A stretch of 64,000 nt of DNA from a virus. The notes under the pieces are model-generated. The model made no database searches, had not been told where the DNA came from, and saw only the letters and a program-made list of their open reading frames with translations. The stretch covers positions 117-64,116 of IMG/VR virus record IMGVR_UViG_3300016476_000584. One strand, given 5' to 3'. The first letter of the stretch is position 1, and each line of letters starts with the position of its first letter. A program made the translations under genes and the position numbers. Positions 2,306 through 50,724 of the stretch are shown here, piece after piece.

Positions 2306-2524
2306 ATGGAAGCACCTTCGGTTTACATCGTCCATCACAACGGAGCGGACGTTGAATGTTACGGAACGTTGGAAGAGGATTCCAATTTCAGCGTTGTCTG
2401 TGAGGATGAAGAGGTTGACGACGTTTGGTGCTACGGCATCGAAGGCGAGTTGACCTGGGAAAATGTGGTTGCGGAATTGCAGCCGCAGTTTGATTCTCGC
2501 ATCGTTGAAATCGGGACTTGCTGA
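2306..2524 (+). CDS. small acidic protein
   Basis: 72 aa with a ribosome-binding site. Confidence 0.45.
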   Translation: MEAPSVYIVHHNGADVECYGTLEEDSNFSVVCEDEEVDDVWCYGIEGELTWENVVAELQPQFDSRIVEIGTC

Positions 2525-2525
2525 C

Positions 2526-2732
2526 ATGAAACCGATTTGGGAAAGCTGGCCGCAATGGCTGACTGACGCTGTCGTGTCGGCCTATAAGAGCGGCAAAGAA
2601 CCGGCAGAAATTGGAGCGGTTCTTGGCCGCCGCGAGGCAGTGATTCGCGGCAAGCTGGTCAGGCTCGGCGTATACGAGAGCGCCGCCATGAAACGTCAAC
2701 TGAAGATTGCAGAGATGGCAGAAGGCTTTTAA
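2526..2732 (+). CDS. GcrA-like DNA-binding protein
   Basis: WESWPQWLTDAV...PAEIGAVLGRREAVIRGKLVRLGVY matches the GcrA N-terminal domain pattern (W...L...LW..G.SA.QIA..LG...RNAVIGK.HRLGL). Confidence 0.5.
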   Translation: MKPIWESWPQWLTDAVVSAYKSGKEPAEIGAVLGRREAVIRGKLVRLGVYESAAMKRQLKIAEMAEGF

Positions 2733-5680: not shown

Positions 5681-6657
5681 TCCCACTAATGAAAAGAGCC
5701 CCTAGGAGCAATCCTAGGGGCTTTTTGGCATTCGAGAAGTGTGAAATGACCTGAAAATCCGCTTGGACGTAGTCCAACAGGCCTGCTAGGCAGGGGGTAG
5801 GTAAATTTACAAGTGTTTTTTCTAAAATATGGTCAATTTGGAGGAATTTAAAAGATTATTTCTTGACAGAATAGGTTGTAACCTATTTTTACGGATTTCT
5901 GGCGCGGTCGGCTAGGGATAATTATCGTTACTAGACTAAAATCTCTCTCAGAATCAAGATAATCACTAGACAGAGTCCTGGTCACTAAGAGAATCTAAAA
6001 TCTAGATAGAGTCCTAGATCATAGGAAAATAAAACTAGGACCCTATGCCATTTCATGGCATCATTAGCCCCCTATGCCAATTCTTGGCAAGACGGGCATG
6101 CCTTGTGGGCCTGAGCCACTCCGTGGCAGAGCTAAAGGGAACTAAAATTGAACTATAAAACTAGTATAAAACCTGTAATAAATTAATAATAAACGATAAT
6201 CACATCATTAGGCCAGATTCTGGTCTTCATGGTCAGCCGATATCCGCTACGCGGATGCTCGCCAAGTGAGATTCGCGTACGCGATGGACTGTTCTGCACA
6301 ATTCCAGTGGACCCCCGCACACTTCCGCTCATTTCCCCATACTTGGAAAACAACGCTCACTGAGAGCGCTTCGCTGACGCTACGCGCTCCACACAACTAA
6401 GCATCGTTTTCGGCTTTGTGGACTTGCGCGGAGCGCAACTTCGTTGCTTAACCTGCTTTTTTGTCTACCTCTCAATCGTACACCTAAAAAGATTCATTGT
6501 CTAGTAGCCGAATTATAAAAAAGTATGGTTGAGGACCATTTTAGAATATTTTTTTAATGCCCTGCCCCCAGCGCAAATAGGTCGCTAGACAGTTAAGAAA
6601 ATTATGCTTGACCTCAACCAGTGGCCGTGTTAATCTAGTATCAAAGGAGAACAAATT

Positions 6658-8786: not shown

Positions 8787-11188
8787 TTCTTATTCTCCAT
8801 AGTTCTGTAGCTTGGCATACGCTACCTGGGCGTCCATAGCTGTCTGCTAGTCCAGTCTGAGCCAGCAGCACGTCAACTAGGTGTTCATTCTCTTGAATGT
8901 ACTGGTCCCATAGTGCAGAGTATAGTTGACGAACCTCTGCATCATTTTGAGGGCGACGACCTTTAGCTTCTCTCCAGCCTAGCCCAGTAGATCCATCTTC
9001 AAACTGTTTGGCCGCCTGATACTGTTCTTCAATTGACCGCCCATTCACCTTGGCGTAGAACGCGCTAAAACGCTTATCACCTAAACTGGAACATTCTAAA
9101 AACGGAGGTTCACCATGCCATATCACTGAAGCCTCTCCCAGCAATATTCAATGATGCGTTGCGACCGTTGGTCAGGATGCTCCGGGCTCACATCAACTCC
9201 GTTGATGATGTCAGGTTTCCAATCCGCGTCCCACATCTTGAACTCGTTACGAATCATGCGACCTAGGCTGCCATGATACTTGACAAGGCTATCACGAGGG
9301 CTGTCAACGAACTGTACGACAAACGTCGGACCCATTGATTGTATTTTTTTGGCTAACCAGACCGCCATGCTGTGTTCATCGTCAGTCACTGGCCTTCTCC
9401 TTCAGATCGTCAAGCTGTTTCCATGCACGGCAGCAAAAACAATCTTCATCGTAGTCCTCACATCGAGGACCGAACCATTCCTCGATGGCTTCTTCAATCA
9501 AATCCGTCATTATAAATCTCCTAGCGCATCTTGAGCACGTTGTATGGCCCAAGCTACTCGTTCTTCATCCCGGTCGTCTAAAGCTTTTAACAGTTCCACT
9601 AGCACTTCTGTTATCGCTTCGCAATCCTTGCGATGCTTTGATTTTACTGATTCAAAAATCACATCTAGCGCAGCATCTAGATTGCGCGGATGTGGTAGCC
9701 CTTCTTCAGCTACCTGCTCTACCACCCGTGCGACTTCGTCGCGGGGATCATCGTGATCCCACTCCGTGGGTTGAATAGCAGCCAGCTTGTATCGCCGCTC
9801 GCACGAATGTTTCTGCCAACGACCTAGTGATGTGTGGTGTTTGCCCGTTTCATCCACACCGAACCATACCCATTCACTCATTCGCCTCTCCTACACAACG
9901 ACAGCTACAGGCTGTCCTACTTCTAGGTCTGAACTGTCCGCCTGCTCTTCATCTATGATTTCTAGGGATGCGCTTACCAGAGGATGAATCGTCCACTCAT
10001 CTTTAAAGTATACAGGCAGGTCACCGTGTTCTCGTTTAACACGCTCTAGTCGCTCAATCAATTGTGTAATTAGCATAGTTCCATTTCTCTTATCTCGATA
10101 ACCTATCTACAATCCATTCGCCTAAGATCATGCCTGCAAAGTAAAAGCAGGCTGACAGTACAATGCTAGTAAACACGTATCCTGTCACAGTCCAAAGAGC
10201 GACAGCTCCTAGTGTGACCATCGTCACATCATAAATTCCAATGTCAGACATCATCTTGTTGCTTCAATCTATCGGCGACGTATTTCAAACTTTCAGGAAA
10301 ACTGAAATTAGCGTATCCGCCTACGCTCTCTACATATTCGTCATGGAGCGCACGCTCACGAGCATATCGAGGATACACACGAGTATACCACTCTTCTATT
10401 GTTTCTTTTTCTTCTTCATCCATGTTTACTCTGCTCCCTCAAATCGGTGCCTGCTCTACGAGACCTACGATACATCGAACGCAGTGGGTATCCTAACGCT
10501 TCCGCAGCTACCATGTATGCGTAAGCTTTACCTACAAACTCGGCGGTGCCCATCTTACGTTTTGCTACTCGCTTGAGCACACGATTGATGTGAGCGAATG
10601 CCACTTCATTAACCTCGTCTACAAACTCTTTATCTTGATCGTTCACGTTCCCGTCTCCATTGACACCAATCATCCCATAACACAAACAGCATGTACACAC
10701 AAGCTGCACTTAGCGCTGATTGCCACCACACTGCGGCGGTTACAGCTGCAATTGCCGAGGCTACAATCCAATCAGCTACAAATACAGCTACTGCCCAATC
10801 ATACCATCTAATCATCTAACCAACACTGTCCTATGCTCTCACAAAGGTCTCTCCGATCGCAGTCGCATTCAGCCATAGTTTGGTAGATGCTCTGTCTCCA
10901 ATTCTTAGGGGCCTGTTTGACTACGTCAAATCCTTCCATCCGCAGTATGGAGAGTATGCCTTGAGCGAGATCAGGTACATCACCTGTCTCGCAAGTCTTT
11001 AAGGCTAGTCGGAGGGCTTCTAATGCTGGCTCACTCATCGAATACAGTCTCCATTCATATACTGCATACCGCTCTCGATGCACTGTTGTTTAAATGTAAG
11101 CAAGCGATTTTCATCTTGAGTAATCATATATCCAATACCCCCTAGAAAAAAGGCAGCTAAAGAGCATACGATTAATACCGGTACGTGT

Positions 11189-42167: not shown

Positions 42168-43604
42168 TCATGCAGCGAATGCATAACGTTCATCCATCAG
42201 AGTCTTCAGCATTACATTGTAAGGCGTGAAGTCTTCAAGATCGTTTGCCAGAACGCTCTTCATGATTGCAGGGCTGAAACCCGACACATGTGCAGTACCG
42301 CGGCTGTCGAACTGAACAGGTACGTTGCCGTAACCAGAGTTCAGGTTCCAGAACACGATCTTTGGCATAGCATAGCCAGCCTGCTCGTACTTGCGAGCAA
42401 TCATGTCCAGAGCACGGTCGTCATAGCGAGCGCAGTGGTCAAACTGCATATCGCTAAGGATCAGAAGGATACGAGGCATATCCTCAGGTGCAGCATTACC
42501 ATTTACGGCAACTTGCAGAATCTGATCGAAAGCAGCGTGTAGGTTAGTATTCATTTCCCAATGAGCAGTGCTCATGGTACGAATACGGTCACTCAGAGAG
42601 CCAGTCAGCTTTACCATAGTCGGACGACCAGAGAAAGTCTGGAACAGGTCTTTGAAAGGACCAGTGTTCTTGGAGCTAAGGTATAGACCTAGAGCAACTG
42701 CAACTTCGATTGGCTGTACGTGGCCAGGACGAGAGTAGCTAAGGCTACCCATCGAACCGGAAACGTCAACCATTGGGAAGACCATTGCATCGCCAACGTA
42801 GTTTGGAAGAGCATTCCACTGTTCGTTGGCTACCGCAGCGTTACCGTTAGCGACGCTTTTTACAACGTCATGAGGATAAACTGCGCTTGCGTTGATTTTG
42901 ACCTTAGGGTCACGCTCAGCCTGTGGCTTTTTCAGCTCCTGAATATAACGAGTATACGCTTCAGATGCGTTACGGCCAAAGGCTTTTTGGTAGCGAGCGG
43001 ATGCAACGCTAGGAACGTGAGAGAAATTAATCTCATTCCAAGTCTTAGCACACATCTGAGTCTCAACAACCTGAGTCAGACCAACGATTAGCTTACGATA
43101 AGCCTTAGGTGATAGGCCAAGAAACTTGGTCAGCTCTACAGCTACAGAGCCTTTGCGAGGCATCCACTTAGCGCACAGACCGTTCTGGTCACGAAGAGCT
43201 TGACCAATCATCTCAAACGCCGCAAGACGGTTTACGTGGTCAGTGTATACGAACAGGTCGTCCCAACGACCAAGCTCTGGAACCTTGTGCATGATGCGAC
43301 CAGCAAGGCTAGGATTAGCCTTTTCTAGTGCAGCTAGCAGATTACGGAAAGTCTGGCGCTCACCAGCACCGCCGCGAATATCACGAGCCCAAAGTAGAGT
43401 GCGAACGGCAAGTTCTTCGTTCTCGCCGATAGCAGCCATGAAATGCTGTGACACATCTTTGCCACGAGCCGAGCCAATCATACCAAAAAGGTCCAGTACC
43501 GCGCTAGAAGTGGTAGCGTGTGCACGCATACCGTTAGCGGTACGAGGAGTGAGGCTGTCATTTAGGACTGCGTTAGCAAAAGTGTTCATTTTATTTCCTT
43601 TCAA
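42168..43604 (-). CDS. vWA-domain protein, Ro60/TROVE-like
   Basis: 478 aa; MIDAS motif VDVSGSM in the C-terminal half; N-terminal helical region; Ro60/Rsr-like architecture. Confidence 0.4.
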   Translation of the reverse strand: MKGNKMNTFANAVLNDSLTPRTANGMRAHATTSSAVLDLFGMIGSARGKDVSQHFMAAIGENEELAVRTLLWARDIRGGAGERQTFRNLLAALEKANPSLAGRIMHKVPELGRWDDLFVYTDHVNRLAAFEMIGQALRDQNGLCAKWMPRKGSVAVELTKFLGLSPKAYRKLIVGLTQVVETQMCAKTWNEINFSHVPSVASARYQKAFGRNASEAYTRYIQELKKPQAERDPKVKINASAVYPHDVVKSVANGNAAVANEQWNALPNYVGDAMVFPMVDVSGSMGSLSYSRPGHVQPIEVAVALGLYLSSKNTGPFKDLFQTFSGRPTMVKLTGSLSDRIRTMSTAHWEMNTNLHAAFDQILQVAVNGNAAPEDMPRILLILSDMQFDHCARYDDRALDMIARKYEQAGYAMPKIVFWNLNSGYGNVPVQFDSRGTAHVSGFSPAIMKSVLANDLEDFTPYNVMLKTLMDERYAFAA

Positions 43605-43687
43605 AGATTTCTGGTTTGTTGCGGAGACTCCCGTCGTCCGCTATTAATGATGATAGATAATTTTATGCTGAAACAAACCGACGCTTA

Positions 43688-44212: not shown

Positions 44213-44329
44213 TGGTGCCCCCGTCTGGATTCGAACCAGAAACCTCTGCATTATCGTTGCAAAATTAATGGCTGTACGGATACACGACTGTATCCCTTTT
44301 AAGCGCTCTAACCATTGAGCTACAGGGGC
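44213..44329 (-). tRNA. atypical 117-nt tRNA-like gene with a ~41-nt insertion
   Basis: Acceptor GCCCCTG/CGGGGGC, a normal D-arm and T-arm (TCTGG-TTCGAAT-CCAGA) and CCA. Putative anticodon arm TTGCA-ACGATAA-TGCAG (GAU). A 41-nt insert containing hairpin GGATACA-GTCG-TGTATCC lies between the D-arm and anticodon arm. Confidence 0.4.
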
Positions 44330-49399: not shown

Positions 49400-49999
49400 T
49401 TAAAACTTTTCTTGGATGAGCTTATTGCGAATTGTAGTGTGGATGCCTGGATTCACCTTCATTGCAGCAGGAACCATCACGTGACGGATGTAGTTGCGAA
49501 CGGCGAATTGAGGGTTAGCATTGGTAGGATCTTCATACCACGCGAGTTGCTTGCGTTGGCACCAGTCAACAAATTCAGATTTTCTTGTGGTACGGAAAGG
49601 ACGAATTACGTTAACATTACGATAGGCAATAGTCTGGTCACGCCCATTACACATATTCCACAGCCAAGTCTCAACGCAGTCGTCAAGGTGATGGCAGGTG
49701 ATTACGGTTCCGTTGATAGAGTGTAAAAACTGGTAACGCTCATTACGCCAGTGTTCTTCCCAAGACTCATCAGCTGGTTTCTCAGCCTTACCTTGCTTTA
49801 GCAGCAGAGGAAGTTGACGTTTCTCAGCAAACTGCTCTACAAAAGCCTGCTCCGCTGAGGAAATTTCATTTCCGTGGTTGATGTGCGCTAGCACTACAGT
49901 ATGATTGCGACGTAGAAAATCTACAACAGCAACACTGTCAACTCCGCCGCTGAACGCGACATACACTGTGCGAGGAATTTTGCCTTGAACGTGGATCAC
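49400..49999 (-). CDS. tilS: TilS-like tRNA(Ile)-lysidine synthetase, PP-loop catalytic domain only
   Basis: PP-loop VAFSGGVDS and LAHINHG...AEQAFV, matching the TilS N-domain; 199 aa, lacking C-terminal domains. Confidence 0.5.
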   Translation of the reverse strand: MIHVQGKIPRTVYVAFSGGVDSVAVVDFLRRNHTVVLAHINHGNEISSAEQAFVEQFAEKRQLPLLLKQGKAEKPADESWEEHWRNERYQFLHSINGTVITCHHLDDCVETWLWNMCNGRDQTIAYRNVNVIRPFRTTRKSEFVDWCQRKQLAWYEDPTNANPQFAVRNYIRHVMVPAAMKVNPGIHTTIRNKLIQEKF

Positions 50000-50044
50000 A
50001 ATTTATCTCCTTTGATATAAGATAACAGATCAACTACCCTCAGG

Positions 50045-50335
50045 CAACGGTTATTTCGATGAGGCCGGTGCGGTATCTACCAAGAGTTAACGACTCTTAG
50101 GCTGCCCATGCTCCGTTTGCAGTTAATTACTCTGCCGTGCTATCTAGCTAGCATAGCACGCTTTCCATACCTCAAAATTGTCAGAATCATTGGGGAAGCT
50201 GAGATTGCTCTCAGCGGCACCTTGCCATACTCCCCGTCAAAGATACACTGTTATGCTGATTTCTACTCCGAAGAGCTACGCACCTCAGCCAGTGTACCCG
50301 TGGCGGGGAGTACTGGAATCGAACCAGTCATTTTT
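50045..50335 (-). ncRNA. second permuted tmRNA-like / tRNA-like structured RNA (paralog of the 23.3-kb ssrA)
   Basis: Minus strand: ACTGG-TTCGATT-CCAGT-ACTCCCC-G-CCA, then an intervening hairpin sharing CACGGRTACACTGGCT...TAACAGTGTATCTYTGA with tmRNA 1, then a 5' strand GGGGAGT that pairs with ACUCCCC. A possible resume/tag is GCAAACGGAGCATGGGCAGCCTAA (ANGAWAA). Several downstream hairpins. Confidence 0.5.
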
Positions 50336-50724
50336 ATTTTTTGCTGTAATGATTCTATTAGTTGGTGTCGGCTTCAGATTATCACATTAACTTAGCTCAA
50401 TCTTTGCGCGAAGAGTACCGACATAATTGGTGGACACTTGGAGATTCACACTCCACAGACTAACATCTTTATTATCACCGCACTCTATGTGATTTATGGC
50501 GCTGTCAATCTTGACTCTTTACTGAGTGCCCTTATCTATGCCCCATCGTATTCGTACCCACACACGCTCATGTATGTAATACGCCACGGTCTGGACTATG
50601 TTCATGAGAATAGCTATATGAAAACCAACCCACCATGCTGCAATTAGCGTGGCAATGATTCGCCAAGTTATTGACTTGACGATAGACCTTTTGTGGGTTT
50701 CCAACCTATTTCTCCTAATTTATT

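Follow-up and report, generated by a model that had tools for sequence, protein, structure and literature searches.

The stretch analysed here (the window) comprises 64,000 nucleotides (nt) of viral DNA, corresponding to positions 117 to 64,116 of the IMG/VR record IMGVR_UViG_3300016476_000584. About 30 tRNA genes were found in the window by ARAGORN and Rfam, all on the minus strand and all with an encoded CCA, together with a real permuted tmRNA gene at 23.2-23.7 kb (tmRNA 1, found by ARAGORN and by Rfam with 99.9 bits), a gene for a Ro60-like protein at 42.2 kb and a tRNA-like element with a permuted gene order, which is the subject of this work (Table 1). A first-pass annotation, made from the letters alone, had assigned positions 50045-50335 to a second permuted tmRNA-like or tRNA-like RNA gene; this interval does hold the element, but the true start lies 22 nt further upstream, at 50357, and the end at 50182. 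The element is a real, structured and conserved phage RNA gene that belongs to no curated family by model match. Neither ARAGORN nor the Rfam tRNA model made a call at the element, the tmRNA call of ARAGORN in the window was the 23.2-kb gene only, and the covariance-model check proposed at first pass gave no match to any tmRNA model (permuted and mitochondrial ones included) or to the YrlA family on 49900-50500, even at E<=10.

Read 5' to 3' on the minus strand, the gene consists of one strand of a terminal helix, a single-stranded ACAGCAA, a linker, a T arm, the 3' strand of a 7-bp acceptor stem, a discriminator base with CCA, an intervening segment, the 5' strand of the acceptor, a D arm, a closed hairpin, a single-stranded pyrimidine motif and the second strand of the terminal helix. 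The terminal helix joining both ends, together with a single-stranded (A/T)CAGCAA, is hereafter called the handle. The T arm, both acceptor strands, the discriminator with CCA and the 65-nt intervening segment were present just as first annotated, while the 5' strand of the 10-bp terminal helix and the invariant ACAGCAA had been missed. The unconstrained minimum free energy (MFE) fold of the 185-nt precursor displayed the same structure, terminal helix included (dG -72 kcal/mol, z about -6). We rejected a pairing in which GGGGAG would instead bind the UUCCCC further downstream, since a G6-to-C change in one homolog (locus L191) is compensated in the acceptor strand (ACUCCCC to AGUCCCC) and not in UUUCCCC.

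Table 1. Positions of the tRNA-like element, of its parts and of related or adjacent features in the window. A2 is the 28-sequence alignment described in the text.
Feature	Position	Strand	Remarks
tRNA-like element (A-type)	50357-50182	minus	176 nt in the gene; permuted, insert-bearing
Terminal helix, 5' strand TAGAATCATT	50348-50357	minus	pairs with 50182-50191; 10 bp
Single-stranded ACAGCAA (handle motif)	50341-50347	minus	C12-A17 invariant in alignment A2
A-rich linker	50329-50340	minus	sequence and length variable, always A/C-rich
T arm ACTGG-TTCGATT-CCAGT	50312-50328	minus	loop UUCGAUU invariant
Acceptor 3' strand ACTCCCC	50305-50311	minus	pairs with 50229-50235; 99% paired
Discriminator G and encoded CCA	50301-50304	minus	G at 50304, CCA at 50303-50301; CCA invariant; discriminator G, A or U among homologs
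Intervening segment, 65 nt	50236-50300	minus	basal stem GGGTACACTG/CAGTGTATCT, variable interior, leader TTGAC
Acceptor 5' strand GGGGAGT	50229-50235	minus	G3-C70 invariant
D arm GGC-AAGGT-GCC with D-loop GG	50216-50226	minus	invariant in the family (but part of the search pattern); resembles the D arm of the phage tRNA-Tyr genes
Post-D hairpin at the anticodon-arm position, GCAA tetraloop	50198-50215	minus	6 of 6 tested pairs covary
Single-stranded TTCCCC	50192-50197	minus	(T)TTCCCC invariant in A2; also in L165 and RNA B
Terminal helix, 3' strand AATGATTCTG	50182-50191	minus	partner of 50348-50357
Second structured RNA, about 116 nt	50060-50175	minus	own closing helix and covarying inner helix
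Ro60-like gene, proposed partner	42168-43604	minus	Pfam DUF2828 and DUF7788/vWA; 478 aa
Handle RNA B	54135-54232	minus	TAGAATCAG-TTCAGCAA-[tRNA-like body, normal order]-CCCC-TGATTCTG; ARAGORN: tRNA-Asn(att)
Handle RNA C	54242-54350	minus	helix-TTCAGCAA-V hairpin-T arm-closed acceptor stem-TA-D arm-helix; classic YrlA layout
Handle RNA D	56000-56064	minus	short, handle only; conserved in L193, L203, L209
Handle RNA E	about 54614-54678	minus	short, handle only; TAGGATGG-CTACAGCAA...CCATCCTG

Homologs were collected through homologs of TilS, a gene that follows the element in the window, and then by DNA patterns, yielding about 30 distinct sequences from phage and metagenome contigs. The element was carried by 20 viral and 25 metagenome contigs, with identical copies in several public metagenomes. 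Covariation was tested on a 28-sequence alignment (A2) in which inserts were trimmed to their basal stem. Across these sequences 99.0% of the cells were paired, versus 35-45% when partners were slid, and 19 of the 41 pairs changed on both sides (1-4 in the slid controls); none of 500 shuffles reached the observed values of pairing or covariation. Covarying pairs were spread over the terminal helix (four pairs, 99.3% paired), the T stem (two), the basal stem of the insert (six of its 10 pairs) and the hairpin after the D arm (six). In the T stem, two of the five pairs switched between C-G/U-A and U-A/C-G in 13 of the 28 sequences. The acceptor was nearly invariant, with a single compensatory G-C to C-G swap (L191) and a single G.U (L200).

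In most homologs the element took a compact form, TTTAGAATGTTT-ACAGCAA-A/C-rich linker-T arm-ACTCCCC-N-CCA-[stem + insert]-TTGAT-GGGGAGT-AT-GGCAAGGTGCC-[hairpin]-TTTCCCC-AAACATTCTG. The insert ranged from 63 to 109 nt and was absent from the diverged L165, which makes it dispensable: there ACTCCCC-G-CCA-TAT-GGGGAGT closes directly and the D arm has diverged as well (GGGC-TGG-CGCCC), with model R1 still giving 70.5 bits. Loops of the post-D hairpin were GNRA, UUCG or UCAC tetraloops in most members and a 7-nt CUCAUAA or CUUAUAA in a few. Searches of about 50,000 cultured phage genomes by megablast and blastn returned nothing or generic T-arm matches only, with no A-type element in any cultured phage, and a scan of bacterial and archaeal genomes for a 20-mer gave three chance matches only. 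Two regular-expression matches, L079 and L105, proved not to contain an A-type element. L079 (about 2440-2640, minus strand; L105 is identical) carries a T arm, a closed acceptor-like stem CCCTGC/GCAGGG, a D-like arm and a preceding GTGTCAGCAAG, downstream of an ordinary tRNA on an unrelated viral contig, which suggests that such RNAs are common in phage tRNA islands.

These patterns bear on the proposal, raised at first pass, that the locus is a decaying copy. A functionless pseudogene left by segmental duplication of a tmRNA or tRNA would account for isolated defects, namely an A.C mismatch in L010, a C-to-A change in L146 and L156, the loss of the T arm in L157 (3315-3545, minus strand, with the rest of the element kept) and the degenerate copy in L185 (5513-5692, plus strand, with mismatches in the T and acceptor stems and without TTTCCCC), as well as for the absence of the element from L021 and L024. 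It is scarcely credible given the covariation described above, with 99% pairing held across phages whose TilS proteins are 60-100% identical, and given the invariance of the single-stranded motifs and loops. The structure is under clear purifying selection, and residual similarity to tmRNA 1 stops at a short cassette that is itself kept by covariation in real tmRNA genes.

This cassette is the link between the element and the tmRNA. The permuted gene order and the cassette between CCA and G1 were identical to those of tmRNA 1 and of the tmRNAs of relatives, and the two flanks of the intervening segment common to tmRNA 1 and the element, CCACGGRTACACTGGCT and ATAACAGTGTATCTYTGAYGGGG, each occurred exactly twice in the 64 kb (chance expectations 0.16 and 0.00). 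The cassette recurs, as CCA-(C/T)AGATACA...TGTATCT(T/C)TGAT-GGGG, in genuine permuted tmRNA genes of relatives, where the distal pairs covary and the intervening sequence is 28 to more than 130 nt long. Because these relatives keep it in real tmRNA genes, the flanks are not a duplication scar. The permuted tmRNA of a cyanophage showed flanks unrelated to the cassette, and a search of viral contigs with the exact tmRNA-type flank CCACGGRTACACTGGCT was discarded, its three matches being chance ones, all in coding DNA. The phage lineage thus appears to apply one processing cassette to two different RNA genes, which is the strongest reason to suppose that the element would have its acceptor end opened, by excision of the insert, and trimmed to CCA.

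The element is nevertheless not a tmRNA, and the parallel with the permuted ssrA holds at the level of processing rather than of membership. The first-pass annotation correctly reported that the alanine determinant G3.U70 and GGAUUCGAC are absent. Its description of the locus as a divergent paralog was an interpretation, not an observation, with no sequence similarity to tmRNA 1 outside the cassette. A specialised second tmRNA is contradicted by the third acceptor pair, G3-C70 in 28 of 28 sequences, and by the lack of a conserved tag, compact members ending about 55 nt after G1 without any open reading frame (ORF). In place of the D-loop analog, the P2-type helix and the pseudoknots of tmRNA, the element has a genuine D stem-loop, GGC-AAGGU-GCC, and the closed hairpin, and its conservation is explained without any pseudoknot.

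A tag-less permuted tmRNA was weighed separately: an ssrA derivative reduced to its tRNA-like domain, charged, bound by SmpB and interfering with, or substituting for, host trans-translation. Precedent exists, as tmRNA curators list a 'permuted, no CDS' (coding sequence) class and the tag-less gene of mycobacteriophage DS6A is inhibitory (PMC11915505), and such a form would share the gene order, the cassette of the phage's real tmRNA, the encoded CCA and a 7-bp acceptor starting with GGGG. It is very unlikely here, since it would have to dispense with the universal alanine determinant, carry a true D stem-loop with GG where GGAUUCGAC is expected, lack pseudoknots and P2-type helix, and escape both ARAGORN and all tmRNA models at E<=10; it also leaves aside that similarity to tmRNA 1 is confined to the cassette and that the handle is shared with RNAs that are not tmRNAs and lie beside Ro-like genes.

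At least five RNAs of this phage, the element and RNAs B to E of Table 1, bear a common handle, and all are placed in the 30-tRNA island that also contains the Ro-like gene. TWCAGCAA was enriched twofold in the window (14 occurrences versus 7.0 +/- 2.7; 0 of 100 shuffles reached 14). The handle signature alone is not specific, a scan having also matched coding DNA, and its specificity comes from the combination with T and D arms and from location. RNA C was matched by the YrlA model RF02553 on 54255-54323 with 29.2 bits (E 1e-3), which is below threshold, and weakly by model R1.

Comparable RNAs recurred beside Ro-like genes of other phages. Mycobacteriophage LilDestine harbors three tandem RNAs directly after its Ro-like gene, each with a terminal helix immediately followed by ACAGCAA; the middle one has T, acceptor-stem and D arms and is the top match of the Rfam YrlA model, at only 21.7 bits. 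In the FelixO1-like Salmonella phage BPS15Q2, an RNA of the form AGACCGTT-ACAGCAA-V hairpin-T arm-closed 7-bp acceptor stem-D arm-AACGGTCT lies in a tRNA array, 1 kb downstream of the Ro-like gene. In four compact-type lineages, handle RNAs with a nested tRNA-like body were found about 30 nt after the stop codon of the Ro-like gene, homologs of RNA B occupying this position in L196, L154, L211, L212 and L163. The Synechococcus phage BUCT-ZZ01 (L214, ON615601.1) encodes a helix-ACAGCAA RNA directly upstream of its Ro-like gene and two long unpermuted tRNA-like genes right after it (9587-9833). One of these has the acceptor of the element, GGGGAGT...ACTCCCC-G-CCA, and its anticodon region is replaced by CATTCTG-TAA-AGAATG, i.e., the terminal-helix strands of the element closed by a loop, with TCTGCAA after them. 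This gene seems to correspond to the element in unpermuted form. The element belongs to a larger, undescribed set of handle RNAs tied to phage Ro-like proteins. As a side observation, 'tRNA-Pyl' genes with anticodon CTA (amber suppressors) were called by ARAGORN in related tRNA islands (L211 16709-16786, L212 10310-10384, L214 2633-2708).

The Ro60-like gene of the window is a highly conserved core gene. Its product was assigned to PHROG 850, 'RNA-binding protein' (E 7e-145), and is 31-32% identical over the full length to mycobacteriophage proteins annotated 'Ro-like RNA binding protein', whose Pfam architecture is the same and was also found in homologs from FelixO1-like phages, a cyanophage and a Listeria phage; the DUF2828 family as a whole matched 711 phage records. 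The only significant full-length match of its AlphaFold2 model in the PDB was 2NVO, the Rsr protein of D. radiodurans (E 1.5e-6), other matches covering the vWA domain only. In every locus long enough for both, the Ro-like gene and the element were on the same strand, at distances of 2-3 kb in L151, L154, L196, L211 and L212 and of about 12 kb in L163, within a same-strand tRNA island throughout. Because everything lies in one such island, proximity to the Ro-like gene counts as weak evidence.

Two further features were observed next to this gene. The spacer directly upstream of the Ro-like ORF (43613-43679, minus strand) folds into GGTTTGTT-TCAGCAT...AACAAACC, a handle-like hairpin with a variant motif, which may act as a leader for autoregulation or as a Y-like RNA. 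A 114-nt tRNA-like gene (44216-44329, minus strand), some 600 nt upstream of the Ro-like gene, scored 49 bits with the Rfam tRNA model and received no ARAGORN call; its acceptor, D and T arms are normal, but about 40 nt are inserted into its anticodon region (a GGATACAGTCGTGTATCC hairpin, GTACAGCC...).

From the fold and the family, the cassette shared with the tmRNA, the encoded CCA, the fold of the Ro-like protein and the recurrence of the handle beside Ro-like genes, the element is probably a YrlA-class, Y RNA-like tRNA mimic, circularly permuted, two-piece by design and CCA-ended, with the Ro-like protein as its partner. In YrlA the paired 5' and 3' ends carry the Ro60 site, and the tRNA-like module is ordered as T arm, 'acceptor' stem and D arm (PMC4201824; bioRxiv 10.1101/312249). 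The YrlA of M. smegmatis, with an acceptor of 7 bp, undergoes RNase P cleavage in vivo and bears CCA, and a second Y RNA adjoins it on the same precursor (PMC4201824). The element shows the same order of T arm, acceptor stem and D arm, with T loop UUCGAUU and D loop AAGGU both invariant, and its ends are paired by the covarying terminal helix, where the Ro site would lie by analogy. A YrlA-like tRNA-like RNA acting with the Ro60-like protein at 42.2 kb had been the fallback of the first-pass annotation; it is this option that the Rsr fold match and the shared handle favour, even though RF02553 gave no match on the element.

The element would be co-transcribed with the surrounding tRNA array. 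RNase P would cut before G1, after the UUGAY leader, and the 3' trailer would be trimmed to the encoded CCA, as in two-piece tmRNA and in the YrlA of M. smegmatis. The expected product consists of two pieces, about 57 and 54 nt long and with CCA exposed as a free end (ends ...CCCCGCCA-3' and 5'-GGGGAGU), which would be held together by the acceptor stem, the terminal helix and a contact of the D loop with the T loop. The handle is the putative binding site for the phage Ro60-like (DUF2828/vWA) protein, and the CCA-ended tRNA-like body may serve as effector or gate, either recruiting a tRNA-recognising factor to the Ro-like protein or gating it. A likely setting would be infection, in the course of which the large tRNA set of the phage itself would be surveyed or protected. 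It is suggested that shape matters and not connectivity, because the permuted form, the unpermuted form (BUCT-ZZ01) and the closed-acceptor forms (RNA C, BPS15Q2) would give the same three-dimensional arrangement of handle and body. Most likely, a cassette borrowed from, or shared with, the phage tmRNA made the element two-piece and CCA-ended.

Several points weigh against this reading. RF02553 does not match the element, although it also gives only 21.7 bits to the LilDestine RNA, a clear phage YrlA, and 29.2 bits to RNA C, both below its gathering score of 69. The published Ro-binding motif GNCGAAN0-1G is absent from the element, which has ACAGCAA in the equivalent place; the Ro-adjacent RNAs of LilDestine likewise carry ACAGCAA and not GNCGAA, and the assignment of ACAGCAA as a Ro-binding site is drawn from this recurrence. 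Unlike published YrlA, the element has an extra closed hairpin after the D arm and ends at the variable-arm position, not at the anticodon-stem position. The Ro assignment of the protein is made at the fold level from a medium-confidence model (predicted local distance difference test score 71, template modelling score about 0.39), with no Pfam TROVE match and no PDB sequence match. Linkage is loose, the element lying 6.6 kb upstream of the Ro-like gene here and 2-12 kb from it elsewhere, the relatives L021 and L024 have no element, and damaged copies exist (L157, L185). Every step of the scheme beyond folding is one that we infer.

The near-invariance of the acceptor opens a different route. 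A permuted or split tRNA-like RNA could act through an aminoacylated CCA independently of the Ro-like protein, as an amino-acid donor, as a decoy for host toxins directed at the tRNA elbow or at acceptor ends, or as a genuine two-piece decoder in the few members whose loop is CUCAUAA. GGGGAGU/ACUCCCC is almost constant while the other helices drift, and the same acceptor was found in ordinary phage tRNA-Tyr genes (L174, L178, L182) and in the unpermuted BUCT-ZZ01 gene; this hints at specific recognition. CCA is encoded, the element is always located in tRNA arrays, and some members have 7-nt loops with CAU or UAU at the anticodon position. This explanation is rather unlikely all the same. The 4-nt GNRA or UUCG loops of most members exclude decoding for those, and the discriminator varies between G, A and U, which is unusual for a fixed identity and would argue against any single amino acid. 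It further leaves unexplained why ACAGCAA and the terminal helix are common to RNAs without an acceptor end.

Around the element, two antisense ORFs (50108-50395 and 50178-50390), of which one is annotated as a gene in the public assembly L005, were discounted: substitutions in the stems are compensatory, and the frames are not kept, the inserts differing in length by numbers not divisible by three. We also rejected an attP-like copy of the 3' end of a host tRNA, because the element has the partner 5' strand, a D arm and covariation. Its surroundings showed neither a promoter nor a terminator on the minus strand. In the lineage of the window the TilS-like ORF lies downstream of the element and no terminator separates the two, and TilS is a tRNA-binding enzyme, an arrangement compatible with a cis-acting leader such as a tRNA-mimic operator bound by TilS. 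Such a leader is highly improbable, as the compact element mostly precedes a different gene, phrog_4499, TilS being placed elsewhere or missing there; no RNA of this kind precedes TilS homologs at 43-82% identity, and a separate RNA gene stands between the element and TilS.

The gene phrog_4499 is small, conserved (MRDRAFRRFQELKKK...CSCYxCGNPRKWWDQKT) and of unassigned function; it directly follows the compact element in L145, L148, L151, L154 and others, and has no homolog in the window. The TilS-like protein (49400-49999, minus strand; 199 aa) consists of the PP-loop ATPase domain alone (PF01171), without the C-terminal tRNA-binding domains of bacterial TilS, and its best PHROG match was weak and QueC-like.

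The RNA between the element and TilS (Table 1), with the sequence frame TTGAGGTA.GGAAAG ... AAACGGAGCATGGGCA ... AGATACCGCACCGGCCTCA, appears to be a separate gene whose class is left unassigned, and gave no Rfam match. It is present in L024, where the tRNA-like element is missing, has no TilS behind it in L198 and, among the matches listed, stands alone directly after ordinary tRNAs in the unrelated contigs L135, L112 and L065. The loose pattern used for this 3' module (ATGGGCA..AGAYACC) yielded mostly noise among the matches listed, and the true stand-alone copies were caught by luck. The extra hairpins and the short tag frame described at first pass do exist, but as part of this adjacent RNA: the supposed tag, GCAAACGGAGCATGGGCAGCCTAA, is one strand of its inner helix, a 1-nt deletion shifts its frame in L010, the closest relative, its end is altered in L019, L022 and L024, and most members of the element family do not have the region at all. 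A reading of this RNA (GAGGUAAGGAAAGUC...) as a miniature RNase P RNA was dismissed, as GUC runs into a local hairpin and no RNase P model matched.

On the other side, about 95 nt between a DUF2061 ORF and the element (50428-50520, minus strand) are 80-100% conserved in more than 15 loci, distant compact-type phages included, and end in ...GGAGTGTGAATCTCCAAGTGTCCACCA (T-arm-like plus CCA). A stretch of this type abuts the second RNA directly in L149, and the two might be parts of one larger RNA. A 65-nt insertion (50363-50427, minus strand), flanked by CACCAA repeats and restricted to the lineage of the window and L010, contains TGTGATAAT, an extended -10-like sequence.

Compared with known systems, the element shares its gene order with two-piece tmRNA, the tag-less mitochondrial and DS6A forms included: both run from the T arm through the acceptor 3' strand and CCA to an insert and the acceptor 5' strand, and maturation by tRNA-processing enzymes would be expected for both. 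In the two-piece tmRNA of this phage lineage, the basal stem and the leader of the insert are literally those of the element. The element differs in lacking G3.U70, the D-loop analog, pseudoknots, a tag and a match to tmRNA models, and in having a real D arm and an anticodon-arm-like hairpin.

Circularly permuted tRNA genes, known from Cyanidioschyzon merolae and some archaea, likewise encode the 3' half ahead of the 5' half, the two acceptor strands being separated by a leader, and give continuous decoding tRNAs via a circular intermediate and the splicing endonuclease. The element has the same order of halves, but most of its members have no anticodon loop and show no sign of end ligation. 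By canonical tRNA standards it departs in its permuted order, in the tetraloop of most members and in the silence of ARAGORN and of the Rfam tRNA model.

The handle also resembles the signature of the Class I RNAs of Dictyostelium, which are abundant and are defined by a short stem between their two ends, an 11-nt conserved motif next to the 5' stem strand and a variable remainder, and which have been reported as unique to dictyostelids, with their function unexplained (PMC7919456). The consensus of RF01414 reads GaUcuCC-UUACAGCAA-Uua...GagAuC, with the motif CCUUACAGCAA directly 3' of the 5' stem strand. The element has the terminal helix and UUACAGCAA against CCUUACAGCAA of RF01414, and phage handles show (U)UACAGCAA or UUCAGCAA at the same position; the handle RNAs at 6544-6590 and 6677-6738 of L213 were set beside RF01414 as well. 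This model gave no match on the element and sub-threshold scores of 14-19 bits on the short LilDestine RNAs. Class I RNAs differ in being eukaryotic, 42-65 nt long, driven by a Dictyostelium upstream sequence element (DUSE) promoter and devoid of a tRNA-like body, versus 176 nt in a phage for the element. Of the four proteins reported to bind them, the one named is the RRM protein Rnp1A, and a partner common to them and the phage handles could be proposed by analogy only; DUF2828 proteins do occur in eukaryotes (plant examples). It is possible, but doubtful, that a terminal stem with UUACAGCAA marks one ancient RNA class of phages and eukaryotes, in which Class I RNAs and handle RNAs would be of the same kind, with the same motif and the same kind of protein. 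If so, the element would be the version whose variable body is a CCA-ended split tRNA mimic, and the likeness, if more than coincidence, would offer a first mechanistic lead for Class I RNAs.

With YrlA of M. smegmatis and of mycobacteriophage, finally, the element shares a terminal helix whose 5' strand is adjoined by a conserved single-stranded motif, a canonical T loop and D-loop GG, the order T arm-'acceptor'-D arm, location on the same strand as a Ro60-like gene, and the presence of several paralogous RNAs per genome. It differs in that CCA is encoded, that the acceptor is closed by a dedicated, excisable insert whose stem and leader are conserved, and that the putative DUF2828/DUF7788 partner, which has no sequence-level TROVE match, is encoded 2-12 kb away and not under 4 kb. 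Y RNAs that mimic tRNA were known already, one of them, the YrlA of M. smegmatis, being opened and CCA-tailed. Here the opened, CCA-ended form would be built into the gene, through the excision cassette of the phage's two-piece tmRNA, which argues that the free acceptor end would be functional rather than incidental. A set of handle RNAs together with a Ro-like gene in one phage tRNA island provides a compact and tractable system for the aminoacylation of such RNAs, for ACAGCAA as a candidate recognition site of DUF2828 proteins and for the role of Ro and Y RNAs in tRNA pools during infection.

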